From Gammaproteobacteria bacterium (GTDB lineage: Bacteria; Pseudomonadota; Gammaproteobacteria; Ga0077536), in the NCBI GenBank assembly GCA_963662545.2, contig CAXXLL010000002.1:672001-736000 (forward strand): a DNA stretch of 64,000 nt, read 5' to 3'. A model generated the notes under the pieces. It made no database searches and was not told where the DNA came from. It worked only from the letters and a program-made list of their open reading frames with translations. This document shows, one piece after another, positions 12 through 61,785 of the stretch; the first letter of the stretch is position 1, and every line of letters starts with the position of its first letter. Made by a program: the position numbers and the translations under genes.

Positions 12-317
12 TGAAAGCTTTGGGTCGGTAGCTGCCGAGCCACCGCAGCGCAGCACAGCTAGAGATTACGTCTGCAATGCGCTCGGAAGCGGTCGTCTCG
101 CAGCTTTCAGTGGAGCGTTAGCTGAACAGGACGGGTCACGGCCGAGGCTGTGTGAAAACTCAAAAATACGATGACGGAAGTAAAATTTTTCCCACCAGCA
201 CAGTAATTAAGCACCTCGAAAAGGGATCGGCATTCCAATTAGAGTCAATTTCGAGTGTAGTTCCCCCACTTTTGAAAAACGAAAATAGTTTTCACACAGC
301 CTCGGCCATAAGCGGGC
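12..317 (+). repeat. Three-box array repeat R1 (MITE in box 3)
   Basis: GGGTCGGTAGCTGCC...GATTACGTCTGCAATGCGCTCGGAAGCGGTC...CACGGCC[MITE]GGCCATAAGCGGGC. Confidence 0.9.
144..303. mobile_element. 160-bp MITE with IS1182-type TIRs
   Basis: TIR GAGGCTGTGTGAAAACT / AGTTTTCACACAGCCTC, GGCC duplicated on both sides. Confidence 0.9.
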
Positions 318-411
318 ACCGTGGGCTGCCAAAAAGAAACTTGCCGAGCCAGGTTCTTTCTCTTGAAATCCAGCAAGCCCCAGTCTCATCGAGCGGGGGG
401 TTCGGGTCAGG

Positions 412-1980
412 TCACACTCCGGTCTCGCCTGCTTCGCGGGCGCGATCCCGCATGCTGCGCTCATCCCGTTCGAGATAGTACTTTGCCAGGCCGATCAGCA
501 CGGCTGCGCCAAGGTTCGCGCAAATCGCCGTAACCAAACCCTTGCGCAGGTCGCCGGTCAAATCAGACACGAGGCCGACGGTGAACGGCCCGAGCGCTAA
601 GCCGATCAGTGTCACGCTGAGGATATATGCGGCGGACGCGGTGCCGCGCATTCGCGGGAGCACCAGATCCGTGATGGTCGATCCCCCGACACCAAGCCAT
701 GCCGCACCGGTGAACGCTACCACCGCGTTAAGTAAGAAGGCCAGCGTGGTGGACAAGGTGTAGAGCATCCAAATGCCAACCGGTACCGGTACCAGAGCTG
801 AGATGATTGCGACGTTGAGACGACCGCACGGGTTGCGGGCACGCCAAAAGTCGGCGAGTACCCCACCCAGAGTGACCCCCAGAAATCCGAATGCCGCAGT
901 GATGCCACCCAACGTGAAACCGAGCTGACCGATGGGAACTTTATGATAGCGGATAAAAAACGGTGCGCTGAAGTAGGCCAGCCCGTATGTGGAAAACGCG
1001 AGGAGTGAGAGGCCCAGCACGACCAAAACCCACGAGCGGGTCTTCAGGATGAGCGTTGCGGTTGGCGGATCGCGCAACGCCAGGCTTTGCGCCCAGGAAA
1101 TCGTCGCGTAAAAGCCGATTGCCAGCGCAATCCACTGTGCCGGGTTGCCGAGAGATACGATAAGCGCCCAAGCAACAAGCGCCAATCCAACGAGCGCGAA
1201 CAGGTTGCGCGCGATCCCCCGGGGCCCTGCGCCACGACGATACAGATTTAGGATCGTGAGGCCGGGTAAGACGGCGCAAAGCTCGCTTCCGAATTCCCGA
1301 AACGGGTGCGGCTCGGGCGGTGAGGTGATGCCGTCCATCGTCCCGCGCGCCGGTTCACGCAACGTCCGTACCCACAACGCAAGTATCAGGCCCGGAAGCC
1401 CGACGACAAAGAACGCTACTTGCCATCCAGCCAACCCGAAGGGTGCGCTGCCTGCTGAAAAAGTGTCGTTCCACCTTTGCACTACCTGGCCGCCGATCAA
1501 GATCCCGAGCCCCGCACCGACGTAGACCCCACTCGTCAGGATCGCAATCACCGTAGCGCGTCGGGCAGGTGCGAAAGAATCCGAGAGCATCGAATACGCA
1601 CAAGGCCCCGTGCCGGCTTCCCCGACCCCGACCGCGATCCGCGCGATGCCGAGTTCGAGGAAATTGCGTGCAAATCCCGAGAACGCGGTGGCGGTGCTCC
1701 AGAACGCCACAGCGTAAGCGACGAAAGTACGCCGCACCCAAACGTCGGCCAAGCGTCCGAAGGGAATGCCAAAGAGCGCGTAGAAAACTGCAAAGGCGGT
1801 CCCGTAGAGAAAGCCCATCTGGGCGTCGCTTAGAGCGAGGTCGCCTTTAATCTCTTCGTTGAGGATCGCGAGGATTTGCCGGTCGACGAAATTGAAGACG
1901 TAAACCAGCATGAGAATGCCGAGGGTGTAACACGAGTAGCGGAACTCGCCGGGCGTCTGGGCAGGTTTCTCGGGCGGCAC
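412..1980 (-). CDS. MFS transporter (Spinster-like)
   Basis: 522 aa, many hydrophobic helices, FNFVDRQIL and GRLADVWVRR MFS motifs. Confidence 0.9.
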   Translation of the reverse strand: MPPEKPAQTPGEFRYSCYTLGILMLVYVFNFVDRQILAILNEEIKGDLALSDAQMGFLYGTAFAVFYALFGIPFGRLADVWVRRTFVAYAVAFWSTATAFSGFARNFLELGIARIAVGVGEAGTGPCAYSMLSDSFAPARRATVIAILTSGVYVGAGLGILIGGQVVQRWNDTFSAGSAPFGLAGWQVAFFVVGLPGLILALWVRTLREPARGTMDGITSPPEPHPFREFGSELCAVLPGLTILNLYRRGAGPRGIARNLFALVGLALVAWALIVSLGNPAQWIALAIGFYATISWAQSLALRDPPTATLILKTRSWVLVVLGLSLLAFSTYGLAYFSAPFFIRYHKVPIGQLGFTLGGITAAFGFLGVTLGGVLADFWRARNPCGRLNVAIISALVPVPVGIWMLYTLSTTLAFLLNAVVAFTGAAWLGVGGSTITDLVLPRMRGTASAAYILSVTLIGLALGPFTVGLVSDLTGDLRKGLVTAICANLGAAVLIGLAKYYLERDERSMRDRAREAGETGV

Positions 1981-2088
1981 GGCGGTGCAATCTACTCGCT
2001 GGATGGAAGCGCACCCAGAGTATAAGGCGGTTGACGTTCCTTTATGGCATTTGCGTCAGCTTGTGCGCCCGCATCGACGCATGAGCGG

Positions 2089-2393
2089 TTTCCGCTCACC
2101 GCCCATTTCCTGCCTCCTCGCGGCAGTGCAGCATCGCTCCAGATTAAGTCTGCAATACGCTCCATAGCGGTCGTCCGGTAGCGTTCGGGGCGCGACCCTG
2201 ACTCGCGGCTGCAGTCGGCCGAGGCTGTGTCAAAAGTATTTTCGAATTTTGAAAGTGGGAGAAGTTTAGCCCGATTCGTCTACCTTAGGCGGTGCGTTCC
2301 CTTAATCAATCGTGCATAACAACCTAAGTGGGGAAAATTTTCACGGCGGGCTCCATTTTTCGACTTTTGACACAGCCTCGGCCACAACCGGAC
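2089..2393 (+). repeat. Three-box array repeat R2 (MITE in box 3)
   Basis: CTCGCGGCAGTGCAGCATCGCTCCAGATTAAGTCTGCAATACGCTCCATAGCGGTC; box 1 degenerate. Confidence 0.9.
2221..2379. mobile_element. 159-bp MITE with IS1182-type TIRs
   Basis: TIR GAGGCTGTGTCAAAAGT / ACTTTTGACACAGCCTC, GGCC duplication. Confidence 0.9.
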
Positions 2394-2520
2394 ATACTGC
2401 TCAAGCTAATTAACGGCACATCATCAATTGCTACACTTTTAATACCGTCGGCGAAAAAGGGTATGTGAATGACGTTCGACGAGGTTCAATCCTGATGCGC
2501 ACAAACACGGGGAGCAGCCG

Positions 2521-3192
2521 GTGAGCTTTTACGAAAACAGAATCTTGCCGCGGATCATCGATCGCATTTGTGGCCACCGCGCGTTTGCGGATCAACGCGC
2601 GAAACTAATCCCGCAGGCGATCGGTCGCGTCCTCGAGGTCGGTTATGGCACCGGTACGAGTTTGCAATGGTACGACGCCGACAAAGTTGAACAGGTCATT
2701 GCCCTGGACCCAGCTGCAGGCGCGATGGAACTCGCGGCGGAACGTGAACGCGGTTCCTCAATTGCGGTTGAACATGTCGCCTTACGTGGCGAAGAAATTC
2801 CGCTCGACGCGGAAAGTGTGGATACCGTGGTCGTCGCCTACACTTTATGCACGATTCCCGATGTCGAATCGGCGATTGCCGGGATGCGCAGGGTGCTTAA
2901 ACCAGGCGGTAAGCTCTTGTTCATGGAGCACGGTCAATCACCCAACGCCAACATAAAACGTTGGCAGGAGCGCTTGAACCGTCCCTGGGGCATCGTCTTC
3001 GGCGGCTGTAATTTGCTGCGCCAACCGCCAATGCTGCTGGCGGAGGCCGGTTTCGTCCTCGATCATCGTGAAGAGCTTGAGGTGCCGTCGCCGCCGCCAA
3101 TTCCTGGAATCACTCTGGTCAAGTACAACTATCTGGGTGTCGCGCGTCGCGCGTCGTGCGTCGTGCGTAGGCAAAAACGTACGCAGGCTTGA
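2521..3192 (+). CDS. Class I SAM-dependent methyltransferase
   Basis: VLEVGYGTG motif I, RVLKPGGKLLFMEHG. Confidence 0.9.
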   Translation: MSFYENRILPRIIDRICGHRAFADQRAKLIPQAIGRVLEVGYGTGTSLQWYDADKVEQVIALDPAAGAMELAAERERGSSIAVEHVALRGEEIPLDAESVDTVVVAYTLCTIPDVESAIAGMRRVLKPGGKLLFMEHGQSPNANIKRWQERLNRPWGIVFGGCNLLRQPPMLLAEAGFVLDHREELEVPSPPPIPGITLVKYNYLGVARRASCVVRRQKRTQA

Positions 3193-5034: not shown

Positions 5035-5300
5035 GATGGCCGCAATGGGTCCAGGCTGTCCGAAAACTAATTTCGATTTTGGAAAGTGGGGTATGCGTTA
5101 TCCAATTTGATCAATTTGCGCAGTGTGGTCCCTAATTTATCTGCTATGGGGACAACAAGTGGGGAAACTTTTCGTCGCGTAACGATTTTTCGGAGTTTTC
5201 GGACAGCCTGGGTCGTCAGCGGCCTCATCGCCGCGTTGCACCACTACTAAACGTTACGTCTGCAATCCTCTCAATAGCGGTCGTGCGGCAGTGTTCAGCG
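5035..5300 (+). repeat. Three-box array repeat R3 (MITE in box 1; box 3 replaced by IS91 fragment)
   Basis: GATGGCCGCAATGGGTC[MITE]GGTCGTCAGCGGCC...TTACGTCTGCAATCCTCTCAATAGCGGTC. Confidence 0.9.
5052..5210. mobile_element. 159-bp MITE with IS1182-type TIRs
   Basis: TIR CAGGCTGTCCGAAAACT / AGTTTTCGGACAGCCTG, GGTC duplication; near-identical to 23270-23428. Confidence 0.92.
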
Positions 5301-5304
5301 GCGA

Positions 5305-5771
5305 CTGAAGACCTAACGCCTCTTGAACGCCGAGCAGCGATGAATTGGGCGCAGCGCCTGAAGCGGGTATTCAACATCGACGTCGAGACCTGCAATAGCT
5401 GTGGCGGGCAGGTCAAGATCATCGCGTGCATCGAGGATCCTGTGGTAATCGAGAAGATTCTCACCCATATCGAGCGCAAAGAAACTTCAACAGGCGCCTC
5501 GCGTTTGCCACCGTCTCGGGGGCCGCCGCAGGCCAGTTTGTTCGCCTAATACACGGACAACCGTGCGAGCAACACTGGCAGCTGCGATACCGACGAAGCG
5601 GCAGGGTCGCTGTCGAGCCGAGGGTCGAAGAGCCCAAAAATTAGCACCTAAGTGTGAGATTCTCCGGGCTCGGCCAGCCGACACCGCCTGCAAGCGCGCG
5701 TTGACGGCTGTGCGAGCACCTGCGGACACTCGATGAAGTTGCGGAAAAGGGCGTTTGTTCGTCTTATACGC
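5305..5771 (+). pseudogene. IS91/ISCR transposase 3' fragment with oriIS-like end
   Basis: MNWAQRLKRVFNIDVETC..CGGQVKIIACIEDP..RGPP; ends GAAAAGGGCGTTTGTTCGTCTTATAC. Confidence 0.85.
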
Positions 5772-5782: not shown

Positions 5783-7195
5783 CTATGATCTCACTGTCGG
5801 CTTGATGTTCTGGTTGAAGCGAAACATATTAGTGGGATCGTATTTATTCTTCAGCGCGACCAGGCGCTTATATTTCTCCGGTCCATAGGCAGCCATCACC
5901 CGATCGTCGCCTTCGTCGTCCTGCGGCCCCAGGTAATTGACATAAACCGAGTCCTCGTTGAACGGCGCCATGGCATCAAAGAAATCCCGTGTCCAGGCGA
6001 CGATCTGTTCATTGTTTGACGGGTCTGAGGTCATGCCCATGATCAATGAACTGTAACGGGCATCGCGGTGGTTGAAGGCGGTGTCATCCTTGCCGACACG
6101 TCGAACGCCGTTACCGACCTGCTCGATCATAAAGACCGATTCCGGCGTGGGGATCCTCGACACGAAATCGAGGATCACCTCGATAGTGTCGGCATTGAGT
6201 TTTTTCAGAAAATTGGACTTCCAATAATTCTGAAGTTTTTCTGGAAAAACTTCATCCGATGCTTGTTGATAGTCTACGTAGGTCGTTGGAACAATATCGT
6301 CGCTGATGGGCGAGCCGAACTCTCTCAGTGGTCGCAAGTACTTCTTACCCTCGTGTATGCCGCCGAAATAACAGACTTCAACCCCGAGCGCTAGTGGGCC
6401 ATCAGGTAATGTCGCGAACTGCACTAAGGAAACCAGATCATCGGGGGACGACTCGGTAAATTCGTCGTAAAACGTGAGCACGTCGCGGGCGGCGTCCAGC
6501 GGATGCCATATCACACCTCCTAGTACCTCACCTACCGGATGAACTTGATACTCAAACGACGTCACGACACCGAAATTTCCGCCGCCGCCGCGCAGTCCCC
6601 AAAACAGTTCTTCGTTTTGATCGGCGCTCACCGTCATCAGTCGCCCGTCGGCGGTGACGACATCAGCGGATAACAGGTTGTCACAAGCGAGTCCGTGTCG
6701 CCCGCCGAGCCAACCCCAGCCACCGCCCAAGGTCAATCCCGCTACGCCGGTACGTGATACAGCCCCGCCCGTACTGGCCAGGCCGAACGTCTGCGTCTCG
6801 CGATCGTAATCCTTCCAGGTTGCGCCACCCTCGGCTCTTGCGATGCGCGTCGCTACATCAACGTGAATACTTTTCATCAACGATAGATCGATCATCAAGC
6901 CGCCATCACACACGGCATTGCCCGAAACGTTGTGACCGCCGCCACGAATGGACACGCTAAGCACATTCGACCGCGCGAAGTTGACTGCTGCAATCACGTC
7001 CGAGACACCGGCGCATCGGACGATCAAATCCGGTCGGTGGTCAATCATTTCGTTCCATATCGTGCGGGCTTCGTCATACCCCGCATCGTGAGCTTGAAAG
7101 ACCGAACCGCGCAGGCCTATTTTGAATTCATCGATAATAGATTGATCGAGGCCCATACTATCCGAGCTATCACTGGCGGTATGTGTAACAGACAT
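5783..7195 (-). CDS. FAD-linked oxidase (BBE-like)
   Basis: RGGGHN covalent-FAD motif, LFWGLRGGGGNFGVVT, YVNY and KYDPTNMF C-terminus. Confidence 0.92.
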   Translation of the reverse strand: MSVTHTASDSSDSMGLDQSIIDEFKIGLRGSVFQAHDAGYDEARTIWNEMIDHRPDLIVRCAGVSDVIAAVNFARSNVLSVSIRGGGHNVSGNAVCDGGLMIDLSLMKSIHVDVATRIARAEGGATWKDYDRETQTFGLASTGGAVSRTGVAGLTLGGGWGWLGGRHGLACDNLLSADVVTADGRLMTVSADQNEELFWGLRGGGGNFGVVTSFEYQVHPVGEVLGGVIWHPLDAARDVLTFYDEFTESSPDDLVSLVQFATLPDGPLALGVEVCYFGGIHEGKKYLRPLREFGSPISDDIVPTTYVDYQQASDEVFPEKLQNYWKSNFLKKLNADTIEVILDFVSRIPTPESVFMIEQVGNGVRRVGKDDTAFNHRDARYSSLIMGMTSDPSNNEQIVAWTRDFFDAMAPFNEDSVYVNYLGPQDDEGDDRVMAAYGPEKYKRLVALKNKYDPTNMFRFNQNIKPTVRS

Positions 7196-9088: not shown

Positions 9089-10920
9089 GAGGTCTGCAAA
9101 GGGTCCAGGCTGTCCATAAACTCACTTTGCGGAGCACTTGACGGCTCATCCGGGCTGTTTGGTAGCGGCGTCATCACGATGCGCTGATTCTGCGCGTCCA
9201 ACAGCGTTTGAGAAACTCGACGCCAAAGTGGCGAAGGACATTCGCCGCCGCGGTCTATCCAACACCCGGAGGATGTTTCGGGAAAAAGGCGGGTTCCTAT
9301 GACTGTATCGCTTCTATGAGTGGCGCAACCCCGAGTATCGCCATCGCCCGTTTCATGTTGTACGCCAGCACGTGCAAACTCATCTCCGTACCCACGTTCT
9401 TCAGCGTTTTCATTTGGAAGTGTGTCGACCCCATCCAGGATTTCAACGTGCCGAAGGGATGTTCGACGGTCTGTCGTCGAACGCGCATGCGCGCGGGCTC
9501 TTTGTCCAACCTTGCTTCAACCGCTTCGAGCACGGCTTCGTGCTCCCAGCGGCTGACGCGTCGTTCTTTCCCCGTCGTGCACTTGCCTTTGAGCGCACAT
9601 GAACCACACGTCGATGCCCAGTAACGGTAGATTGTTAATCCGTCTTGGTGTGTTTCCGTGCGGCGCGTCAGTCGCTCTCCCGCCGGACATTCGTATTCGT
9701 CATCATCGGGCTTATAAATGAAATCCCGTTTGCCGAAGAGGCCCTTCGCCAGATTGCCCGAGGTCTGGGGTTTCGGCAGATAAGTCGTGACCCCCGCTTC
9801 ATCACACGCCAGGCTCTCCTCGCTCCTGTAGTAACCCCGGTCCGCGACAACCTCCAGGTGCTCAACACCGAGTGCTTCCTTCGCTTGCTTTGCCATGGCG
9901 GCGAGCGCCGCTCGGTCATGACCCACGTTCGTCACCTCGTGCGTCACGATCATATGATGTTTAGCGTCAACCGCCGCCTGTACGTTGTAGCCCACCATCC
10001 CCGTACCGCGCCCGCTGGTCGCCATCGAGCGGGCGTCTGGATCAGTCAGTGAGATCTGTTGGCCCGGTGCCTCAAGCATCCGGGCTTCCAACTTTTTTAG
10101 GCGCGCCATCTCCTCTTTCAGTCGGCTGATTTTATCCGCCAGTCGCTCCGTTTTGTCCTTCGCAACCGCTGCTTCCTGACGGTCAGCACTCGCCATCTGA
10201 CCCAGATACCGCTCAATGCTCTCGTCAATCTGCGCCAACCGACGCTTCAGCTTCGCCTTGGTGAAGTTCCGCTCCCGGTTGTTCACCGCCTTGAACTTGC
10301 TGCCATCAATCGCTACAAATGCCTCCGAGAATAATTCCAGCTTCCGGCACAGCATCACAAACTCCCGGCACACCAGACGAATGGCGACACCGTTGTCCTT
10401 CCTGAAATCCGCGATGGTTCTAAAGTCAGGCGCTAAGCGACCCGTCAGCCACATCAACTCCACATTGCGCTGCGCTTCACGCGCCAGCCGTCGCGATGAC
10501 TGAACTCGATTCAGGTAGCCGTATACGTAAAGTTTTAAAAGGGTTCTCGGATCGAAGCCCGGCCGACCCGCGGCCTTGGCCTCCGACTGGAAACCTAGAC
10601 CGGAAATATCCAGCTCGTCGATGAATACATCAATCACGCGCACCGCACTGTCTTCGCCGATGTAATCATCCAGTCGCTCTGGAAACAGCGTCGCTTGGTA
10701 GCGATCTTCGCCTTCAATGAATCCACTCATCAGACGATTCCTTGCGCGAAAGGTCGATTATAGATTCATGGGAGTTTTCGGACAGCCTGGGTCGTAAGCC
10801 GCCCGCTCGCGGCAGTGCAGCACTGCTAGAGGTTAGGTCTGGGATACCCTCGTAAGCGGCCATTCCCTTCTCATAAAAAGCATCGCAGCGCTTGACTTCG
10901 GCTCGCGGCTAAGAGCGGTC
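9089..10920 (+). repeat. Three-box array repeat R4 (split by IS1182-A in box 1)
   Basis: GAGGTCTGCAAAGGGTC[IS]GGTCGTAAGCCGCC..GCAGTGCAGCACTGC..AAGCGGCC..GGCTCGCGGCTAAGAGCGGTC. Confidence 0.9.
9106..10789 (-). mobile_element. IS1182-family element A (transposase 9297-10730)
   Basis: 477-aa DDE transposase (IDGSK, ADRGY, VEHPFG); TIR CAGGCTGTCC.AAACT; GGTC duplication. Confidence 0.95.
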
Positions 10921-11011
10921 CCGAATATAAACGGTGTTCGTCGAGAATTGCTATGCTTACAGAACTGCCCTCGGGTGAACATCCAATAAGACGATGTCGG
11001 GAGATCGGACC

Positions 11012-12877: not shown

Positions 12878-12884
12878 GGGTACC

Positions 12885-13016
12885 GTGACGGCGATTAGAT
12901 CGGAGGACGTTATTCAAAGCGTGGCGGACGCGTTGCAATACATCTCGTATTACCATCCGCCCGACTACATCGCCAACCTCGCGCGCGCCTACGAGCTCGA
13001 AGAGTCGCAGGCCGGC
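12885..13016 (+). pseudogene. Class I fumarate hydratase, 5' fragment cut at repeat R5
   Basis: Own translation: MTAIRSEDVIQSVADALQYISYYHPPDYIANLARAYELEESQAG. Confidence 0.85.
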
Positions 13017-51317: not shown

Positions 51318-53400
51318 AGTATAGGAAGCATAAACTCCGGTTCCCCAAGAATCCACCGCCTCTGAATAGCCGCCCACCCGACTCTTCGCCCTGCTCGCTG
51401 CACAATCTGCGCTGAATTCCACCACCAGTGCCTGAACTTTCCCCAGCTTTTCGCCCCTTTCCGTCCCATGCTTGCCTTCAAGCGAACAGCATCTCTGCCG
51501 CGCCGTCAAAGTTGCAGCAACTTGATTGGATTGGTTTATATTGCCGGTGTCAGCCGCACAGCTCTACCTGAGGCGGCGCCCTGCTTTGTGGCAACAACGC
51601 CGCCGGTTCCGGAGCCGGTTTTTCTTTCAGGTGAGTCAGTATCTTCTTGATCACCACCGGGTCTTCGATGCAGGCAATCACTTTGACGATGCCGCCGCAT
51701 TCACCGCAGGTCTCGATATCGATGTGGCCTACAGGGATGTAGGTCAGGGGCGTGAGCAGGACGCGGAAGCTTTGAAGACGCGCTTGAGTCGCGGTGCTTA
51801 AGGCTCATCGAAACCCGATGCGCGGCGGGCGTTGGCGGCTCATCTAATACTTTGGCCTTGTTGACTTTGCCGCGCTTCGCCGGTGTTACCAAGGCACGGT
51901 GCTTGCTGTTGGGCGCGCGCCAGGGATGGCGCGCATACAACCTTGTCAGGTTCACTCTGGGCTTGGGCACCAGCGCCACCCATCTTGCAATAAAGTATTC
52001 CGGGCATCCATGCCCGTCACCCCTTCGGGGCCAGCCTTCGGCTGTTCAAATTTGTTCCCGACAAATTTGTCCAGGGGCTCGAAAATGCCGTGCAGGGATG
52101 CGCGGGACTGGCCACATGCGTGGTGCCGTCGCGATACGGGGTTTTCAACGCGTAACGCACTTTGCCCTGCGCGGTGAGCGACAGGCGCTTTTCGGATACC
52201 GCCGGCCGGGTGATGTAGCGGCACAGGCGTTCCAACTTGTCCCGTTCATGGGCCTTGGCGGTGACGCCGGCGTGCAGGGAAAAACCGGCGACATTGCCGG
52301 GCGCCTCGCCATAGTGCTCTTCGGGGTCGCAGACGGGCAGGGTTTGCAAGGTGAATACTTTGCGCCCAGCATTTGGTCCCACAGCAATGCGGTAGGTAGC
52401 CGCTCTCGCGCGTCCCTGCGCTTCGCGGCATTCGTGCTTCCCTGCACATCATGGAATGCCCTTGCAGCTGTTCCATTGGCCCCATTTCCACGGCGTCCGC
52501 GGCGAGATAACTGTTTTCGATGTCACGTTCCAGTAAGCCCTGACGCTCGAGACAAATTTGCCAGGAGCAAATTTGGACGCACGAAGTGCGCCCGAAGGGG
52601 GCGCGCCAAGGACGGCACGCATCAAAGCGGCCGATGCCCTGGGCGATGGTGTGGACCAGTTGGGTGAGTTCGGCGCTTGTGGGCGCCTTCACCCAGCGGA
52701 ACTTGCCGCCGTCAACATACACCCGTCGAGGAACAGCATATGACAAATCGGCAGGACAGCCGATTTGCACAACCGGAGGTTGCCCCGCAAGGGTGGCACA
52801 CAGGGATGTGCGCCATGCAAATGGATATTCAGGTTGACCGCCGACCCGAAGCGCTGAATGAGTGTGACGGCATCAGCGCAAGCCGTGGTTTTTGTGTAAC
52901 CGGCTTTCCGGGTCAGATGCGTGGCGATGGTGCGGTAGACGATGCCCAGCACACGACTCATGACGTCTGGGCGACTGGCAAATAGAAAGCGTAGCGGGAA
53001 CGGTACGCTGAGCACCCACTGGCGCATCGGCTGTTCGGGCAAAACCTCATCCACCAACAAGGCGGCGCTTTGCGCCATGCGCCGTGTCCCGCAACTGGGG
53101 CAAAAGCCACGCCGTTTGCAGCTGAACGCCACCCGGCGTTCAGCATGGCAGGTGTCACAACGCACCCGTAGGAAGCCGTGCTCGCGGCGCCCGCATTTGA
53201 GGTACTCGTCGAACTCGCGCTCGACATACCCCGGCAATGTCGTTCCCTGAGCCGCCAAGTGGCCCTGGAACGCGGGATAATGCTCTTCAACAAGCTGGTA
53301 AAGGAGGGTGCGTTCCGGGCGATGGCGTTCGTAGACCGACGCAACAACCCCCGCACTGGCTTCCCTGCCAGCAGGCAACGGCAACATATTCGCATCCTTG
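51318..53400 (-). mobile_element. IS91/ISCR element, transposase (~53387 to 51550) disrupted by small inserts
   Basis: FSCKRRGFCPSCG, RQWVLSVP, GFSLHAG, LERLCRYITRP; oriIS-like GTTTATGCTTCCTATAC on minus strand near 51318-51335. Confidence 0.88.
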
Positions 53401-53656
53401 CGAAATCGTCTTGAAGGTTAGCCTAACAGACCCCCTTCATCGTCGTCGCGGGCATTAGCCGATTTGGAGATCGCGTTAGGTAATGTATTTCTCTGTGATC
53501 TCTGTGGTTTTATTTTATTGTGCCGCTCCGTAGTACGTCTGCGTATCCATTCATGCCTTAAGATCCTGCCTACGATTCCCGACTAAATGCCAATCCGGTC
53601 GGCCATTTCCAAGAGATATTTGAGGTCTCCGCGCGTGCTGGCCTGCTCATCACCAG

Positions 53657-53709
53657 GGTGGGTCAGTTTTCAACCGGCCAGGTGGGCCAGTTTTCAACCG
53701 GCGTTGACA
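53657..53709. mobile_element. IS21-family end remnant
   Basis: GGTGGGTCAGTTTTCAACCGGC repeated twice, ending GTTGACA. Confidence 0.7.
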
Positions 53710-53918
53710 CGTGTTAGCGCCGGGCCGACCGAGACCCGACGCGCCGCCTGACAAAAAGCCCGACTCGTACGCTTGACCATGACTTTCTCATCGCTGACGG
53801 ACCCGGACGATGGCGACGAGCGGCCGTGGCAGCCATGGTGGGGTACAACGTGCAGACGGTCGACACGAAGAGTCGCTCGGGTCCAAAAAAATCAATAACG
53901 TGGATAATGCAGCGCAAC

Positions 53919-54061
53919 AAGTCCGCTTCGGGTCGTCAGCCGCCTGATCGCGGCAGTGCAGCACTGATTAGGATTACGTCTACAATGCTCTTCATAGCGG
54001 TCGTCGAGTTGCTTCAAGCGTCGTACAAACGCACGACCTAGCCTCGCGGCCAGATGCGGTC
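53919..54061 (+). repeat. Three-box array repeat R19
   Basis: AAGTCCGCTTCGGGTCGTCAGCCGCCTGATCGCGGCAGTGCAGCACTG..CATAGCGGTC..CGCGGCCAGATGCGGTC. Confidence 0.92.
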
Positions 54062-54355
54062 TGTCAGGTTTCCAATCCCCTTGGATATTCTGTCCCCTTG
54101 GTTTTGTGGACAGGGATTGGAAGAATCGGGTGAGATACTAAGGATAGAGACTCGTAATGGACCGGACCGAGGGCTTTGGTGAATATGAGCGTGAAATGAC
54201 TGTTCAGGAGATCGAGCGTGTAGACCAGCCAAAGGATTATGAACTGGTAGAACATACATTTAACAGAGGTAGCGGTACCTATCTCATAGGCGATCAAGGT
54301 AACTGGACTGTTGATTCTCCTGCCTACTCATTTGATTTTAAATCAAGGATCAAGA

Positions 54356-54979
54356 ATGGTTAAAACTCTCTATGAATGGGATCGTTGGGCGTGTGAGCGC
54401 TGGTTTATATCACCGCTTGTGGACGCTGGTGTGCACCCTAATGCAGTCACACTCTTTACTCTAATTGCTGCCGTTTCCGGGGCGTTGCTTATGCCTCAGT
54501 ATCTCTGGTTAGGTGTTCTGCTTTTTTTCATTGGGCGTTTCTTTGATAACGCAGATGGTGGCGTTGCGCGGGCATCAAATAAGGTCACTAAGTTTGGTGA
54601 GAGCTTCGACACATGGACTGGAGCTGCTTCATTAGGCGCTCTATTCTTCATGATGGGCAGCGGGGCATTGGCGTTTCTAGGTGTTGCTGGTGCAGTTCTA
54701 TCCCGTGTCCTGTGCCTATTTGTTGATGATGAAAAGGAGTTCTTCAACCCAACATGGCTACGTAAGTTTCCTTTAGTTGTTGAACTATTACGTAATGAGC
54801 TGGCTGGTATGCCCTACTTCCTACTCCCACTGTTCGCGGCCTTTGATTGTGTGGACATATTCCTGTGGCTCACCTTATTGGGGAACTGGCTCACTATCAT
54901 CGTCTTCACACCTATACTCCTAAAGTCAGGTGGTAAGGCCAGAAAATGTAAGCTCGTTCCTAAAACAGGGGCTATGTAA
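54356..54979 (+). CDS. CDP-alcohol phosphatidyltransferase family protein
   Basis: HPNAVT, DNADGGVAR..TKFGESFD; AT-richer DNA. Confidence 0.88.
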   Translation: MVKTLYEWDRWACERWFISPLVDAGVHPNAVTLFTLIAAVSGALLMPQYLWLGVLLFFIGRFFDNADGGVARASNKVTKFGESFDTWTGAASLGALFFMMGSGALAFLGVAGAVLSRVLCLFVDDEKEFFNPTWLRKFPLVVELLRNELAGMPYFLLPLFAAFDCVDIFLWLTLLGNWLTIIVFTPILLKSGGKARKCKLVPKTGAM

Positions 54980-55136
54980 TGGCAAAACAGATTGGGCGTT
55001 ATCAACTATTAAGTATTCTAGCCAACGGTTGCCTGCCCTTCCGTCGCTACCGCTGATGTCCGCAAAGCCAGAAGCGGACCGGACGGAGTCACATAAATCT
55101 GTCCCCATTCATTCTCTCTCCTTCCCGTTTTTCTAT

Positions 55137-56026
55137 TCAGCCGGTTTCCATGGGTAGATCAGGATCGCTCGTCCATTCCGTCAGCGAGCCGTCATAGAGT
55201 TCGACATTTTCGACACCCAGGCGGGTGAGCGCGAAAACGGTGTTACTCGCCGCTATTGCCCCGCCGCAGTACGCAATCACGCGCTCTTTGTCGAGAGCAC
55301 CGACGTCTTCGAACTGCTGCCGTAGCGCCGCATCATCTGCGAAGTATTGTGTCGGGAGGTCGACGGTCGTCGAAAACGGCACATTCACGCTGCCTGGGAT
55401 GCGGCCGGGGCGCGCATAGCGCTGCGGCGGACGCCCGGCGAACTCATCCGGGTCGAGGGCGTTGATCAGGCATGCTGCGCCATCGCCGATGGTCGTGAGC
55501 ACGTCATCGCGACTGGACTGGCGATCAGACCCGTACGCGGGCGCGCAGTAAATTTCGCGGCCGGATGGTCGGGCGCCACGGTTGAGGTCGGCAATCCCCG
55601 CGCGCTCCATGTCGTCCATCCGCCATTGAGAACGGCCGCGTTATCGAAGCCGAAACAGCGCAGCATCCACCACACTCGGGCGGCCCAGGAATTCATGCCG
55701 CGGTCGTAGAGCACTACTGCTGTACCGTCGCCGACCCCGATGGCTGACATCACCTGTGCGAAGCGGTCAGCGGACGGCATCGCATACATGAAATTGGTTT
55801 GCGAGCGGTCGGAGAGTTCGTGCAGTAAATCGACGTAGGTGGCGCCCGCAATGTGCACCTCATCGAACAACGGTCGGCCGCTGGTCATTTCCAGTCCCTC
55901 TGCCGCCGTCGGCTCGAAATAATTGGGTAGCTGCGAGGTACATTCAACGATCCGTAGCTCAGGCGCATCGAGGTGCGCGGCAAGCCAATCGCACTCGACC
56001 AGGTAATTCAGTTCAGCCAGGTCCAT
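55137..56026 (-). pseudogene. Tandem-rhodanese sulfurtransferase, frameshifted near 55520
   Basis: HIAGA, AARVWWML, VLNGG / GRIPGS, YCGGAIAA, LYDGSLTEW in two frames. Confidence 0.85.
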
Positions 56027-56237
56027 TACCGTTCTCTCCTGCGGGTTGGACAAAAGGTGTCAGATTTATTTAAGGATAAAGGGAACGGAGGGACTCAAAA
56101 TCAACCAGTTGGCAAAATTTGATTCCTTCGTCCCCTTTATTATGACCGAAAGGCGCCGGATAGCCGCCGTTCGTCCCTGACAGAGCTTTATCAACTCGTG
56201 CAGGCGCCTCCCGGCCAGGACCGGACACCGAAGGCCG

Positions 56238-56268
56238 GAAAAAAGAAACCCGCCGAAGTGGGTTTCTG
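56238..56268 (-). terminator. Intrinsic terminator of the RidA gene
   Basis: AAAAAAGAAACCCGCCGAAGTGGGTTTCT. Confidence 0.7.
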
Positions 56269-56287
56269 CTGATACTCTTCAAACAGC

Positions 56288-56683
56288 TCAGGCGACGGCC
56301 GTTGCTTCGATTTCGATCATGATGCTTGGGTCGTAGAGGCGGGTCACCCCGAGGAGCGTGGACGCGGGCTTGCACCCGTCCGCCGCGACGATCCCGAGAA
56401 GTTCACCGGCCGCCTCCATGAAGCCGTCCACATCAGTGGTGTACATGTTCAGACGAATGACATTGCCAGGCGTCATCCCTGCCTCTGCCAGCGCGTCCTT
56501 CAGATTGGCCCAGGCGAACTTGAACTGCGCGGCGAAATCGCCCGGGTGCATTGGCGTGCCGTCGGCCGCGGTTGACGTCTGGCCAGAAAGGTAGAGCGTG
56601 CGCTCGCCGCCCGTCACTTCTACCCCATGGTTTATGTTGAAAGCCTGGAGCCAGGGCGTGGGATTTATATTACGAGTTTGCAT
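56288..56683 (-). CDS. RidA family protein
   Basis: LYLSGQT, PASTLLGVTRL, IEIEATA. Confidence 0.9.
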   Translation of the reverse strand: MQTRNINPTPWLQAFNINHGVEVTGGERTLYLSGQTSTAADGTPMHPGDFAAQFKFAWANLKDALAEAGMTPGNVIRLNMYTTDVDGFMEAAGELLGIVAADGCKPASTLLGVTRLYDPSIMIEIEATAVA

Positions 56684-56859
56684 GAAACGACCTCCTCGGA
56701 AAGTCCTGATAGAAACGTGCCTCGGCGAGGCGAAGCACCTGATCTGAGGCGCCAGTCCTGGCCGGCGCGCTTGTCCAGTGTATGCATCACAGCGCGGATG
56801 TTAAATCACCGCGCCGCACAATTGTCGTGTGTCAGCCCGGGACAGAACGTCAAGACGCG

Positions 56860-57422
56860 TAGCTCACTCGTTATCCTGGGACTCCCATAGGTGCCGTCAC
56901 TAGCAACGTGCACACGCCGTACCGCTTTCAGCAAGGCGCGGTCATCCCGTGCGTGTTGGCTCTCCGGCCGCCCACGCCAAGCGTAGTAGCCGCTCGATGA
57001 CACACCTGCCAGGCGGCACATCAAACGGATGGGATAGAGTCGGCGGTGTCGATGGATATGCGCATATCTCATATCGACTCCGTGGCAAAGTAAACCACCG
57101 CTTCCTTTAAAAAATCTCGTTCCTGTTCAACCTTGGCGAGTTTACGCTTCAACTGCGCGAGTTCTTCATCTCGCGCCTTAACCTTCACCGGGAAACGCAC
57201 TAACGCCGTGCTCCTCAACCGCGTCTCGCCAGCGCCGTAGCTGACGTGTGCTGATCCCCAACTCCTCTGCTACCAGTGCCGCCGTTACTCCCGGTTCATT
57301 GCATCGTCTCATCGCTTCTCGCTTGAACTCGGTGCTGTATCGCTTTCTTCGCGTCATGACCCACCTCCAGCAGGAGCATTATCCCGCTACATCTAGGTGT
57401 CCACGAAACTGAGGCAAGACCA
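56860..57422 (-). mobile_element. Truncated IS3-family element
   Basis: IRL TGGTCTTGCCTCAGTTTCGTGGACA, damaged orfA, orfB start ..[16 protein letters not shown]. Confidence 0.85.
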
Positions 57423-57438
57423 ACAAGCGGCCATTGCC

Positions 57439-58044
57439 TCAAGGGCCCTGGTAGGAGAAGGCGGAGTAAAATCCGTTCTTGTTCGAAAATTCCCAGTTAA
57501 AGCCCAGATCTTTGTAGCTCAACTTGCTGGAGCGGGCGGCTACCGCCGATTCCCCCGGGGCTATGCACAGGGGATGGTTGGTGATGGTGACATCCTGCCC
57601 GCCCTGTCCCTCGATGGCTTCAATGGCCACTTCCGCAAAGCTACCGATGCGTAGCCGGCGTTGCTTACCGTCGATGGTGAATTCCATGGGTGCCGAAGCC
57701 AGTCCGACGATCTCCGCTACGTGTGATGCCAGTATGGCCGGATGACCGCCGGCGTGGCCTCCAAATATTTGCTTCAGGGCCTCCCGCTGTCGGTCATTGG
57801 CCTTGTCGTCTAGGTAGACCGCGGCCTTCCACTTGACCTCCGCCATATGGCCGGGGGAATGCACCGCCAGGGCAACATTCAATCCGTCGAGGGACATGCC
57901 CTCGAAACTGCCTTTTTCGATGTGCCAGGCTATCAAGACCTCGCATTCGCCGGTGGTAGGCTTGCTGAGAAATACACACGGACAGGCCGTTTCGCAATTG
58001 CAACTTTCAAAATACTGTCCGCTCAAATTCCAGTCGTTCGCCAT
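57439..58044 (-). CDS. DUF1326 family protein
   Basis: GQYFESCNC..CPC..PTTGEC, IFGG..GG. Confidence 0.85.
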   Translation of the reverse strand: MANDWNLSGQYFESCNCETACPCVFLSKPTTGECEVLIAWHIEKGSFEGMSLDGLNVALAVHSPGHMAEVKWKAAVYLDDKANDRQREALKQIFGGHAGGHPAILASHVAEIVGLASAPMEFTIDGKQRRLRIGSFAEVAIEAIEGQGGQDVTITNHPLCIAPGESAVAARSSKLSYKDLGFNWEFSNKNGFYSAFSYQGP

Positions 58045-58465
58045 GGCAGTACCCTCCTCATGTGAATGAACGCCCGTGGTTTCGTGAACCGGGCGCTATG
58101 GTGTATAGATTCTATAATTGAAGCATAATCCGCGAAGTGTATATTCGGGTCGAAATGAGTATGGAACGAATAAGTCGCTTCTACCCCAGCACGCTCAATC
58201 TGGACGATTTCGGGCAGGGATGAACATACGAGGACGAATAACTCCTACATTTTCTGAGTAAAGTTGACGTGGTCGGTGAGTTTGGTCAGAGAGCACGATT
58301 ATATGTGAGCAGAAGCGGCCAGAAGCCGACGTAAAGGTATAGCCCACTGAATTCAAGGGGCAGGATCCTTGAACACCGAATGAGGTTTTCAAAGGATCCG
58401 ACCTCTTGAACGCTTGCCCTGGTACGTTTGCGATTGGCGGGTGTCGCTTCGCCGAAGAAGTTCCG

Positions 58466-59797
58466 ATGTCCCGATTGAACTATATGAAGTCGTTTGTCAT
58501 CTGCGTGTTTATGACTTGGGCGTTGTCTGTCTCTGGTAGCGAGGTCTCGTATCAGGACGTGAGGGATTGGCTGCAAACCGATGCAGCCGCACCTGTCGAC
58601 GGCATCGCCCCGGGTGTCTATGGCGTACGGGATCTGGCGAAACTCCGGCACTACCTTCCGCCGGGCTTTGCCGAAGAATTCGATTTCTCCGAATTGTCAG
58701 TCGAGATCGCCGAAACCGAACACTACCTTCCGCACAAAAGCTACCGCGCGGCGACAGAGCGATTCGAAGGCACCGCGAGCATCGGTCCGGACGGCGCGAT
58801 CGGATCCTATACCGCGGGACGCCCATTCTCGGCAGCTGCGATCGACGCCGCACCACCAGAAAAAGCGGGCTATATGGTTGCCTGGAGCCACATATTCCGG
58901 TGGCAACATTACGGTTACGAAACCGACATTCTGATGAGCTATGTCGAGCCGAACGCATCGGGCGACCGGCACACCGCCGGCATGGAGGGCGGCGGTAACG
59001 TAATTCGATCAATGACGCTCTACTATCGCCGGGTCTACCTGAACAAGCTCGCACATCAACCTGATGGTGACTACCGGTTGGACATCGACAACACCGATGA
59101 GCTGCATTGGAAAGAGTACATCGAATTTTTAGATCCCTTCGATGTGGCGGGTTCAAAATTTGTCGTCGAGCGATCGCTCGACCCGAACCTCGGTGATCAG
59201 ATGTATTCCTACCTGCCGAATGAACGGAGAGTACGACGATTATCGGTCAAGGAACGATCCGATAGCTTTATGGGCAGTGACCTGACCTTTGACGATCTAC
59301 AGGGCTTCTCCGGTCGTGTGCTGGACTATTCCTGGAAATATCTGGGACGCAAAGTCGTAATGCACGTCAGCGCGTCGCGACATGAGCAAGCAGTGTTTTT
59401 CGGGCCGCGCAGTCACGTTCCATCGGACCGATGGCAATTGCGACCGTGCTACGTCGTTGAACTCATCCCGAAGTGGGAAGGGCACCCTTACGGCCGTCGC
59501 GTCCAGTTTATCGACGCCGATTCGTTCAATACGGTGGTGTCGTTGATCTTCGACCGGGGTGATTCCTTATGGAAAATCGTGTATACGGCGTACGAACACG
59601 CAGATGTGCCGGCCGGTACCGAGCCGAACGCGGAAGAGTCCGTACACCGCTGGTCCGCCCTGGTGGCCATCGATCTACACAACAACACGACCACGGTCTC
59701 GCGCGAACCGCCAGGAACTCAGTCGCGATACGAGGCGGTGTCGCCCTCTCGGGTGAGGCGGATATTCGATGTGTCGAACCTCACAGGCGGCCGTTGA
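58466..59797 (+). CDS. DUF1329 family exported protein
   Basis: YTAGRPF, YSYLPNERRVRRL, GSDLTFDDLQGFSG, HPYGRR. Confidence 0.82.
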   Translation: MSRLNYMKSFVICVFMTWALSVSGSEVSYQDVRDWLQTDAAAPVDGIAPGVYGVRDLAKLRHYLPPGFAEEFDFSELSVEIAETEHYLPHKSYRAATERFEGTASIGPDGAIGSYTAGRPFSAAAIDAAPPEKAGYMVAWSHIFRWQHYGYETDILMSYVEPNASGDRHTAGMEGGGNVIRSMTLYYRRVYLNKLAHQPDGDYRLDIDNTDELHWKEYIEFLDPFDVAGSKFVVERSLDPNLGDQMYSYLPNERRVRRLSVKERSDSFMGSDLTFDDLQGFSGRVLDYSWKYLGRKVVMHVSASRHEQAVFFGPRSHVPSDRWQLRPCYVVELIPKWEGHPYGRRVQFIDADSFNTVVSLIFDRGDSLWKIVYTAYEHADVPAGTEPNAEESVHRWSALVAIDLHNNTTTVSREPPGTQSRYEAVSPSRVRRIFDVSNLTGGR

Positions 59798-60109
59798 CAA
59801 AGCGGCCGTTATGAGGGTGCCAAGGTGTGTTTTGCCCGGTACGACAACATGGACCAGCACCGATTGCTGGCGCGGGGTGCCGTTCATTTCAAAAATCGCT
59901 CGATGCTGAGTCGCCGGTGGCAGGTGATGGGCCGCACGGTGGCCGGGGGCGGCTTGGGTGAGAAACAAAACCTGTCCTTTTTAATTATTTGTGTTTATAG
60001 ATGCCTAATCGTCGTTTAACGTGACAATACCTCCATGATGCTTTCCCCTCAATGAACTGGTGGGGGCAGCATAAAGGCGGAATACTCAACCAGCTAATAT
60101 AATGCCAAG

Positions 60110-60254
60110 AATGTCGCCTTCGGGTCGTCAGCGGCCTGATCGCGCCAGCGCAATACCGCTCTAGATTACGTCTGCGATGCTCTCGGAAGCGGTCGTCGAA
60201 CTGCATTAAACGCCTTGCGAAAGCGCGACTATGGCTGGTGGGCATGCGCCGTCG
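60110..60254 (+). repeat. Three-box array repeat R20
   Basis: AATGTCGCCTTCGGGTCGTCAGCGGCCTGATCGCG..CTCTAGATTACGTCTGCGATGCTCTCGGAAGCGGTC. Confidence 0.92.
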
Positions 60255-60301
60255 TCTCCTTCAGGAATATGCTATCGATTCGTCATTTAGGGGGCAAAAA
60301 A

Positions 60302-60823
60302 ATGAACTGGGAAACAATAGGCGTATTTGCGGAAGTAGTCGCAGCGGTAGCCATCGTTGTGACACTCGTCTACCTCGTTATCGAATTACGTCGAAACACC
60401 GCAGCGACGCAGAGCGCAACACACCAGCAACAAGTCGATACCACAGTAGCGCTAAACACAAATGTTTCGAACGATCCGCAGCTCGCGACCCTAATCGCCC
60501 GAGCTAATGACGATTACACTTCTCTTGAGCCTTCCGAACAAATTCAACTTCAATATTTGTATACGAGCTACTTGAATATGTGGCATTACCAATATTCTAA
60601 TAAACAGAAGAAATTTCTCGATTTGGATGTTTTCACTGTATGGGATAAAGGAATGTCAATTTTGCTCAATACTCAAATCGGAATAAGGGAGACATGGGCT
60701 GCCATCGCCCACATTTACGACAACGACTTTCGAAATCACGTCGAAACTGAGATAAGCAGATTAGGACCCGTGGAAAGTCATACGGGTATGCTTGAGGAAG
60801 GGCCGAAGGAAAACGCACCCTAA
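60302..60823 (+). CDS. Hypothetical membrane-anchored protein resembling 27706-28242
   Basis: MNWETIGVFAEVVAAVAIVVTLVYL.IELRRN; AT-rich. Confidence 0.8.
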   Translation: MNWETIGVFAEVVAAVAIVVTLVYLVIELRRNTAATQSATHQQQVDTTVALNTNVSNDPQLATLIARANDDYTSLEPSEQIQLQYLYTSYLNMWHYQYSNKQKKFLDLDVFTVWDKGMSILLNTQIGIRETWAAIAHIYDNDFRNHVETEISRLGPVESHTGMLEEGPKENAP

Positions 60824-60982
60824 AAAGGCGCACAAACCCCGCGCCTGGCTATAGCTTTCATTTCGTCGGCGATGACAAGTGCCGACCGCCAGGAGCGATG
60901 CGGTGACCCTCGGTGTCCCTGATCCACGGCAGGGTGACTGAAGGAAAGTAGGCCTATGCCTATCACTCTTTCGGTCCCGTTG

Positions 60983-61085
60983 ATGGGTCGTCAGCGGCCT
61001 AATCACGGCAATGCAGCACCGCTCTAAATTGCGTCTGCAATGCGCTCCATAACGGTCGTCCTATTGTTTTAAGCGTCGCGCTCGA
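60983..61085 (+). repeat. Array repeat R21 (boxes 1-2)
   Basis: GGGTCGTCAGCGGCCTAATCACGGCAATGCAGCACCGCTCTAAATTGCGTCTGCAATGCGCTCCATAACGGTC. Confidence 0.9.
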
Positions 61086-61108
61086 AGCCAGTCCTCGGTA
61101 CCTGCAGT

Positions 61109-61435
61109 TCATTCGGTCGGGAGCGCGGGGACGATGTTCGTGTCAGAGCGGGTGCGCAGGGTCTCGTACTCGGTGCCTGCGGGCGGGGGGGTGTCGGTTA
61201 TGTTCCAGTTGCCCTGCACGTCGCGCCATTTATAAGCCTGTGTCACGGTCTGGGGCCGTTCCAGCGGGGTGCCCTTCAGCATCTTCTCGATACGGGCCTG
61301 CTCGAAGACGTAAACGTAGGTACCGGCAGCGCCCAGCACGAGCAACAGCAGCAGCCAACGCCAAGGAACTCGCCACTTGCGCTCGGGCGTAGTGTCGGCG
61401 AACTCAAACTGCTGAAAGCGATCGTCGCGCGCCAT
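61109..61435 (-). CDS. DUF4124-like membrane protein
   Basis: TM helix, YKWRDVQGNWNITDTPP. Confidence 0.8.
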   Translation of the reverse strand: MARDDRFQQFEFADTTPERKWRVPWRWLLLLLVLGAAGTYVYVFEQARIEKMLKGTPLERPQTVTQAYKWRDVQGNWNITDTPPPAGTEYETLRTRSDTNIVPALPTE

Positions 61436-61609
61436 GCTCGTCTACCCTCTCGAAGCGCCGGCGAACCAGCCGAACGATACGGGCCTGCTCGAAGACGTAA
61501 ACGTAGGTACCGGCAGCGCCCAGCACGAGCAACAGCAGCAGCCAACGCCAAGGAACTCGCCAGTTGCCCTCGCGCGCCATGCTCGTCTACCCTCTCGAAC
61601 GGCGAACCA

Positions 61610-61655
61610 GCCGAACAATTTAGCCAATGCGTTGCGTCGATCGGTTGAAACCGCA
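61610..61655 (+). mobile_element. IS30-family right-end remnant
   Basis: AEQFSQCVASIG* then AACCGCA, abutting GTC of box 1 in R22. Confidence 0.65.
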
Positions 61656-61785
61656 GTCGATAGCCGCCGAATTGCGGTAGCGCAGCACTATTTTAGATTA
61701 CGTCTGCAATCCTCTCGTAAGTGGTCGTCCAATAGCGTTAGGGAGCGCGACTATGAAGAGCGGCAACAGTCGGCCATTTGCAGAC
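61656..61785 (+). repeat. Three-box array repeat R22
   Basis: GTCGATAGCCGCC..TAGATTACGTCTGCAATCCTCTCGTAAGTGGTC..CAGTCGGCCATTTGCAGAC. Confidence 0.88.

Follow-up and report, generated by a model that had tools for sequence, protein, structure and literature searches.

Co-oriented arrays of a ~150-base repeat separating accessory genes in a gammaproteobacterial genome, possibly built by an integron-like recombinase

The 64,000-nucleotide stretch of DNA analysed here (the window; positions 672001-736000 of contig C2 of the gammaproteobacterial genome G000, which measures 5.58 Mb at 58% G+C in three contigs) is punctuated by a ~150-base repeat whose copies, all in one orientation, separate blocks of unrelated genes. 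Such arrays recur elsewhere in the genome, where a 2.5-kb unit encoding a tyrosine recombinase and an IS91-family transposase (IS, insertion sequence) has integrated precisely and in a fixed orientation at a CGGCCA core, one such site being found in both filled and empty form, and cassettes are shared and reordered between arrays and between species. This is a strongly non-random, genus-specific array system that resembles integrons and dif modules in its working and belongs to neither. The best reading, which we hold with about even confidence, is integron-like accretion of cassettes by the recombinase of the unit, because repeated site-specific integration would leave direct repeats between unrelated DNA and the sole recombinase seen using these cores is related to the integron integrase IntI.

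The repeat had been reported in a first-pass annotation of the window as a ~140-bp element at 22 positions. A profile built with nhmmer from 20 window copies and run over the whole genome, hits being kept at E up to 1e-3, recovers 21 of these 22 positions; the copy at 17866, which had been described as deleted, retains its left arm only, followed by an IS3-family insertion and then by a right-hand CGGCCA-type core at ~19117-19140. Inside the window there are 22 profile hits, every one on the + strand as claimed (chance ~5e-7 were orientation random), which correspond to 21 repeats since one copy is counted as two halves (38859-38905 and 40053-40137) with an IS630-like insertion between them. 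The repeat families detected in the window have 15-20 copies each, in direct orientation only. The description of the spacers was also accurate: Pfam searches identify unrelated genes on both strands between the repeats, and G+C content per kb varies from 0.48 to 0.62 along the window.

Across the genome the profile gives 120 hits in 18 clusters (25-kb linkage) that span 327 kb, or ~6% of the sequence. Eleven clusters have three or more copies, two consist of two opposed blocks each, and the biggest (C2:612978-749010; 136 kb, 39 hits) contains the window. Neighbouring copies less than 25 kb apart are co-oriented in 100 of 102 pairs, with a median spacing of 2.3 kb, in line with the earlier claim that this is not a scattered repeat family and with the clustering into co-oriented arrays that it had named as support for its reading. 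An effect of replication direction was considered and rejected: both orientations occur inside the positive-GC-skew part of C2, and orientation is therefore not governed by replication. BLAST with one repeat copy found the repeat in two congeneric genomes out of 40 others, and a sequence-only Infernal model with stricter filters was positive in two of 60 other genomes of the family (G001 with 26 copies and G002 with seven), with no copies in 58 genomes of 17 other genera. In G001, contig 14 carries 14 copies in one all-plus array. No match to the repeat was found in a plasmid collection, and the family appears, from these sequence comparisons, to be restricted to this genus.

The candidate enzyme is encoded by a gene pair present in six copies in G000, in which a tyrosine recombinase (293-319 amino acids; Phage_integrase and SAM-like domains) is followed by an IS91-family Y2 transposase (384-397 amino acids). 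Comparison of the copies delimits a unit of about 2.5-2.6 kb. Against the integron-integrase model TIGR02249 the recombinase scores 174-187 bits (cut-off 265), in two stretches that skip model positions ~179-237, which correspond to the IntI-specific insertion; a preprint assigns recombinases of IS91 elements to the integron-like subgroup and states that they have no such insertion. The transposase matches Y2_Tnp (E = 4.5e-65) and Zn_Tnp_IS91 (5e-32) in Pfam and transpos_IS91 in NCBIfam (423-430 bits, cut-off 125), and the unit has the Y2 HUH transposase with a zinc-binding N-terminus by which the IS91 family is recognized. Each of the six units is found either within an array or at most 3 kb upstream of it, and shares the orientation of its repeats. 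Their left flank is always CGGCCA plus two bases and their right flank an AGCGG-type arm, which means that the unit interrupts the right-hand core of the repeat. Two copies stand in 150-base repeats, one in tandem after another copy, and three in short 'head' sites (two of these three belonging to a 2.8-kb duplication), while two further head sites are empty at the exact position that holds the unit in a third. The proposal that the enzyme would be encoded outside the window is supported in that a conserved, IntI-related recombinase gene is present there, at or inside array heads of G000, in six co-oriented copies; none is found in the G001 and G002 assemblies.

The unit is widespread. Homologous pairs are annotated as 'site-specific integrase' and 'IS91 family transposase' on public plasmids (e.g. 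a Methylomonas plasmid), and species-representative genomes contain 80 loci, in many proteobacterial genera, with recombinases 60-73% identical; the repeat profile has no hit in these 80 loci of other genera. At 33 of 62 distinct left junctions in other genera the core pattern stands directly before the unit, compared with 0.6% at random positions, and an arm-like GCT lies just upstream at 22 of those 33. Right flanks, seen in 13 loci, often start with an AGCGG-like arm, and several reconstructed empty sites are short palindromes. From the core pattern at these junctions it follows that the unit is a site-specific element targeting such short palindromic cores everywhere, and it is only in this genus that such cores have been multiplied into arrays. 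Array candidates in an Arenicellales genome (L055) and in L056 were rejected as tRNA-linked repeats and paralogous gene ends.

The window blocks comprise one to about eight genes each, and their cargo includes transporters, flavin-, pyrroloquinoline quinone (PQQ)- and luciferase-type oxidoreductases, SPFH proteins, a deacetylase, proteins of unknown function and many IS elements. Crude calls of open reading frames (ORFs) of at least 100 amino acids, IS genes included, give 157 along the repeat direction and 138 opposite to it within the arrays. The commonest non-IS cargo is a family of 100-220 amino acid proteins whose members are 20-44% identical (e.g. 27649-28242 and 60215-60823) and match nothing in Pfam, even when E values up to 10 are admitted. 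The family has 24 ORF entries, ~21 of them distinct as three ORFs are listed twice; the 22 entries beyond the two window members lie in eight arrays, and 17 of the 24 run along the repeat direction. One block that recurs, discussed below, is the following.

10928-13016, + strand: example cargo block with a PQQ-dependent dehydrogenase gene at 10994-12877

This PQQ-dehydrogenase block has a second copy in G000, between repeats at C2:442789-445147, and a copy in G001 that likewise lies between two repeats (92% identity). In the G001 array, six cargo segments other than IS have counterparts in G000 that are 88-96% identical but stand in other arrays and in a different order, whereas outside the array on the same G001 contig 28 of 31 segments match G000 at 68-82%, core DNA being at ~75%. 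The G001 homologues of other window blocks are only 79-84% identical and are dispersed on many contigs, from which it follows that some blocks are old. In G002, two blocks are in swapped order relative to G000. The blocks flanking repeats are not syntenic with the sister genomes, and no empty site was identified for the solitary Na+/H+ exchanger block of G001, the flanks of which are not syntenic with G000. One cassette common to G000 and G001 starts at the CGGCCA of its upstream repeat and ends at the left arm of its downstream repeat, and 8 of 12 homology breakpoints, judged by eye, are at a core. Blocks are thus gained, lost and reordered between species with most ends within repeats, which supports the first-pass reading, some breakpoints being mid-repeat or in cargo.

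As read from alignments, each repeat would consist of two core-like sites separated by ~95 well-conserved bases. In the left core, a good imperfect palindrome, the 9-base arm ATGTCCGCT and an AGCGGCC-type arm flank a 10-base spacer with GGGTCG in it; in the right core a spacer of the same length, with CGGCCA, lies between a weaker CGGCT-type arm and the arm AGCGGACAT. The outer arms of the repeat are 9-base inverted repeats of each other. Copy 7, at 17866, is a left arm joined to a right core without the interior, and therefore matches the product predicted for recombination between the two cores. A genome-wide pattern search for free-standing single-core sites was too noisy to use.

Several identities were considered for the repeat and rejected. 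Classical attC sites, whether in integrons or in clusters of attC sites lacking integron-integrases (CALIN), have end motifs of the form RYYYAAC...GTTRRRY, which are absent from the consensus, in agreement with the first-pass view that the element is not attC, and fold as single strands, which the repeat does not: its mean fold z is -0.67 (60 folds, 30 copies; 14 further folds have z from -1.3 to +1.5), compared with a mean of -9.8 (range -5.9 to -14.4) for ten true attC sites in G000 itself. Compensatory changes are almost absent from the consensus fold, and a structured RNA was discarded as Rfam gave no match over the window at gathering thresholds and none for one copy with flanks at E up to 1. 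Miniature inverted-repeat transposable elements (MITEs) have terminal inverted repeats and a target-site duplication; here there are inverted arms, and flank duplication is at chance (mean 2.62 bases versus 2.56 +/- 0.17 permuted, n = 26 intact copies). Repetitive extragenic palindromes (REPs) and bacterial interspersed mosaic elements (BIMEs) are stable palindromes of 20-40 bases accompanied by a RAYT-type transposase, while the repeat is ~150 bases long and does not fold. A MITE derived from the recombinase-transposase unit was dismissed too, the best local score to the unit ends being 19, where shuffles average 16 and reach 28. A tRNA-derived attachment site was rejected as well, no tRNA lying within the window. 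A promoter or terminator role was rejected since 12500-32000 contains two promoter-like sites (8.1 in shuffles) and 14 terminator-like ones (18.7 in shuffles), only one of which is within a repeat.

Many window copies are themselves interrupted. Seven are split exactly after GGGTC by an IS1182-like IS (477-478 amino acid DDE transposase) or by its MITE, with a 5-base duplication of GGGTC, and this family uses only two insertion points in the repeat, after GGGTC and at GGCC, in either orientation. Insertion right after GGGTC is the reason why profile starts are offset from those first reported (5035/5198, 9089/10777, 15160/16849, 23253/23416, 28305/29993, 33675/33847 and 41051/42739, first-reported start before profile start), and since GGGTC is duplicated around the insert, the first-reported start is the true left arm of the repeat. 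The same IS end also stands beside GGGTCG in G002 and in the Arenicellales genome L055. The 22 copies, all on the + strand, are as follows.

12-158, +: copy 1; right core broken at GGCC by a MITE at ~141-310
2092-2236, +: copy 2; left part degenerate, MITE at GGCC at ~2217-2385
5035-5343, +: copy 3; ~160-base MITE at 5047-5205 after GGGTC
9089-10927, +: copy 4; IS at 9102-10784 after GGGTC, with the ORF of a 477 amino acid DDE transposase at 9297-10730 on the minus strand
13017-13163, +: copy 5; intact
15160-16999, +: copy 6; 1.7-kb IS at 15165-16871 after GGGTC, identical to those at 28309-30006 and 41057-42763
17866-19140, +: copy 7, without ~105 bases of interior; left arm at 17866-17876, IS3-family insertion, CGGCCA-type core and right arm at ~19117-19140
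21311-21456, +: copy 8; intact
23253-23562, +: copy 9; MITE at 23265-23423 after GGGTC
25796-25939, +: copy 10; intact
28305-30142, +: copy 11; 1.7-kb IS at 28309-30006 after GGGTC
30996-31141, +: copy 12; intact and nearest to the consensus of all
33675-33991, +: copy 13; MITE at 33691-33854 after GGGTC
36908-37034, +: copy 14; right end divergent
38056-38197, +: copy 15; divergent
38860-40137, +: copy 16; IS630-like element mid-repeat, with a DDE_3 ORF at 38902-39630 on the minus strand
41051-42883, +: copy 17; 1.7-kb IS at 41057-42763 after GGGTC, in inverted orientation
44570-44714, +: copy 18
53919-54065, +: copy 19
60110-60255, +: copy 20
60983-61090, +: copy 21; 3' end truncated (profile positions 11-119)
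61656-61791, +: copy 22

The head sites mentioned above are a short form of the site (~120 bases), of which there are eight in G000; five arrays have it at their upstream end and two have it internally, and it might correspond to the primary site (attI) of an integron. Three of them are directly preceded by a GIY-YIG-like gene of 190-212 amino acids, the copies of which are 70-75% identical. The GIY-YIG-like domain is C-terminal and scores 22.4 bits in Pfam against a cut-off of 22.6. The gene family is narrow, with 23 database relatives, seven of which have a precomputed Pfam GIY-YIG hit and most of which are on ~1-kb contigs. A conserved tiny ORF (~28 codons), encoding a hydrophobic peptide whose last residues are LWPEG plus acidic ones, also precedes head sites, and at two of its copies a deletion between two similar short sequences seems to have removed the GIY-YIG-like gene. 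These genes are located in G000 as follows.

C2:606044-606682: GIY-YIG-like gene
C2:1616068-1616640: GIY-YIG-like gene
C3:385454-386077: GIY-YIG-like gene
C3:~6630-6720, C3:~923500, C2:~654900 and C3:~388800: tiny ORF upstream of head sites
C2:~605950: tiny ORF upstream of a GIY-YIG-like gene

These elements can be assembled into a model in which the window would lie inside the largest array of a genus-specific ~150-base recombination-site repeat, and the DNA between repeats would represent cassettes of accessory genes, one to several genes each and in either orientation. Circular DNA carrying such a site would integrate beside an existing site, and arrays would grow and be reshuffled through site-specific recombination at the cores. 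Repeated site-specific integration leaves direct repeats, and their occurrence between unrelated DNA would be explained in this way. The most likely enzyme would be the IntI-related, Xer-like tyrosine recombinase of the 2.5-kb IS91 unit, which would act in trans on cassettes that have no recombinase gene. That the cargo moves by the same reaction as the unit, that this recombinase is the catalyst, and the two-core anatomy are inferred. The interpretation of the first-pass annotation, iterative site-specific addition of DNA, is partly supported, and one repeat may be added per event.

A number of findings, however, weigh against this model. The assemblies of G001 (26 copies, 89% complete) and G002 (seven copies, 95% complete) are without any candidate enzyme: they contain no integron integrase above cut-off, no close relative of the recombinase, no IS91 transposase and no homologue of the head gene. 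No recombinase common to the array ends of all three genomes was found, the G001 array having DDE-type IS genes only. Conversely, 51 loci in other genera, each 9 kb or longer, have the unit and, by self-comparison, no comparable array, and because it stands there without arrays the unit may be a mere site-specific parasite of the repeat, like the IS/MITE family at GGGTC and GGCC. Two of the 12 breakpoints are mid-repeat, at the most conserved box, and two are inside cargo, while all in-repeat breakpoints lie in conserved boxes, where homologous recombination would also put them; homologous recombination between repeats is therefore a possible contributor. The right core is a weak palindrome only, and arm complementarity is no better than in shuffled pairs, whether within the repeat (p = 0.12, n = 26) or across one cargo block (p = 0.79, n = 24). 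Contig joints between repeats seen in four public runs (e.g. 53966->61698) have sides of less than 31 bases, in conserved boxes, and are no evidence of excision; neither a circle nor an excision junction was seen in these contigs.

A more prosaic explanation, which we regard as unlikely, is that the repeat is a passive interspersed element of the REP/MITE kind and a preferred landing site for several IS, the arrays, their reordering and the sharing across species being due to the transfer of entire islands and to homologous recombination between repeats, with no dedicated recombinase. G001 and G002 do keep arrays with no candidate enzyme in their assemblies, three unrelated types of element insert at fixed points of the repeat, breakpoints are found at its left, middle and right conserved boxes, and neither covariation nor a stable fold speaks for a structured site. 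REP and MITE families, however, are scattered and found in both orientations, while here all but two of the 102 neighbouring pairs point the same way and the copies keep to ~6% of the genome. Target-site duplication at chance level (2.62 versus 2.56 bases, n = 26) does not fit an inserted element, copies only ~65-85% alike are a poor substrate for homologous recombination, and one cassette has clean ends at both cores. Rolling-circle (one-ended) transposition driven by the IS91-family transposase, of the sort suggested for IS common regions (ISCR), seems to us less probable again. In that scenario the repeats would be origin- or terminator-like, cargo would be captured by read-through and insertion would take place in one orientation beside another repeat. 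This agrees with the location of the six IS91-family transposase genes of this type (423-430 bits against the NCBIfam IS91 model), each of which is in or at an array and co-oriented with its repeats, with cargo of any content and orientation, and with oriented insertion without duplication, none being seen here. Yet the repeat has no significant similarity to either end of the unit (19 versus a shuffled mean of 16 and maximum of 28), and G001 and G002 are without the transposase. IS91 targets the tetranucleotide GTTC or CTTG, and the insertion point here is within a palindromic core and not directly beside either.

Ordinary integron cassette arrays, or integrase-less attC clusters, served by the two integron integrases of the genome are very improbable, although two genes do exceed the integron-integrase cut-off (462 and 461 bits versus 265) and the architecture resembles that of cassette arrays. 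One of these IntI genes has its own array of about ten palindromic ~110-base sites, and the genome's own attC sites fold (z -5.9 to -14.4) while the repeat does not (mean z -0.67). Moreover, the two IntI genes are separated from the nearest repeat arrays by 112 kb and 52 kb, and array ORFs are split between the repeat direction (157) and the opposite one (138). The host Xer system is also unlikely as the driver of the arrays because the dif-like site of the genome is unlike the repeat arms. This single, AT-rich 28-mer at C2:2180004 has two mismatches to the motif used, and its position, on the contig half where GC skew changes sign, is likely the replication terminus.

The classical chromosomal integron of G000 is at C2:985243-997664, with its integrase gene at 996723-997664 (462 bits) and ~ten attC-like sites of ~110 bases that are 400-2700 bases apart; the one copy of these sites that was inspected has AAC...GTT-type ends. 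No array is obvious beside a second integron integrase gene, at C3:1527239-1528180.

Among known systems, the arrays recall integrons, with their long series of co-oriented sites between unrelated accessory genes, site-specific IS elements that parasitize these sites, a 'head' site upstream of several arrays that is possibly comparable to attI, and a candidate enzyme in the integron-like subgroup of tyrosine recombinases. In contrast with integrons, the sites have no attC end motifs and no single-strand fold, their median spacing is 2.3 kb, and cassettes are often multi-gene and in either orientation instead of being single co-oriented ORFs. The recombinase is without the IntI-specific insertion, and its gene points the same way as the array, is paired with an IS91 transposase gene and occurs as an insert in the sites rather than as a fixed divergent gene. 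The pdif modules of Acinetobacter are similarly bounded by short core sites of tyrosine recombinases, shuffled between replicons and devoid of an internal recombinase. Their sites, however, are 28 bases long, resemble chromosomal dif (XerC/XerD) and alternate in orientation, whereas those described here are ~150 bases long, all direct and unlike the genome's own dif-like site. In tandem integrative elements, which exploit Xer at dif or, for tycheposons, reside at tRNA genes, direct repeats flank unrelated cargo and some units have no recombinase, as here. Those repeats, however, are copies of dif or of tRNA ends and the elements are few, while the present repeats have no likeness to dif and no tRNA in the window, and form arrays at about a dozen loci, a single one reaching 39 copies. 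IS91/ISCR capture likewise ties an IS91-family transposase gene to polar acquisition of neighbouring genes of any kind, but ISCR have no equivalent of the 150-base repeated boundary, which is itself unlike the unit ends. Finally, REP/BIME and MITE families are also short intergenic repeats hit by IS at fixed positions (GGGTC and GGCC in our case), but the 150-base repeat differs from them in having no stable hairpin and no target duplication, and in being array-confined and co-oriented. In literature searches on IS91 recombinases and gene cassettes, tycheposons and pdif/Xer modules, no description of such arrays was found.

To our knowledge, the stockpiling of promoterless genes in long polar arrays has been well described in bacteria for integrons alone. 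A bolder proposal, which we advance tentatively and consider rather doubtful, is that the arrays are a second, integron-independent platform for gene capture. It would combine a head module (GIY-YIG-like gene, tiny conserved ORF and short head site), arrays of double-core, double-stranded sites and an IS91-borne, IntI-related recombinase that is itself a cassette, and would capture, stockpile and exchange multi-gene cassettes of either orientation between arrays and species; its rolling-circle partner might supply the circular DNA substrates. If cassette accretion by this recombinase is true, the closest relatives of integron integrases would also run a cassette system, using ordinary double-stranded core sites and multi-gene cargo, and a function would emerge for the integrase gene of one IS91 subgroup, which has long lacked an explanation. 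Marine gammaproteobacterial lineages would then be exchanging, as cassettes, a large stock of accessory genes for oxidoreductases, transporters and unknown products.

Near-identical window sequence is present in public runs of eight studies. Thirteen runs from four studies contain at least half of the sampled words of window positions 53000-62900, and seven further runs from four other studies, some labelled as sponge and sediment metagenomes, contain part of it; no RNA run is listed among the public runs containing window sequence. The organism, or its arrays, thus recurs in several sample types.

The window shows a few other features. A second repeat family, of ~90-190 bases, occurs at 45982-46167, 51873-51995 and 52551-52626 and brackets the segment from 46 to 52.6 kb of the window, with which the following gene fragment is associated.

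52689-53387, - strand: fragment of an IS91-family transposase gene (zinc-binding domain only), assigned to this segment, in opposite orientation and outside the six recombinase-transposase units

A perfect 118-base tandem duplication at 50664-50899 lies within a gene for a 612 amino acid PD40/WD40-like protein, and a contig of public run X1 has a single copy (joint 50663->50782). At 61288-61576, a 102-base stretch is present twice, 187 bases apart and 97% identical, and contigs of X1 and X14 skip 141 bases there.

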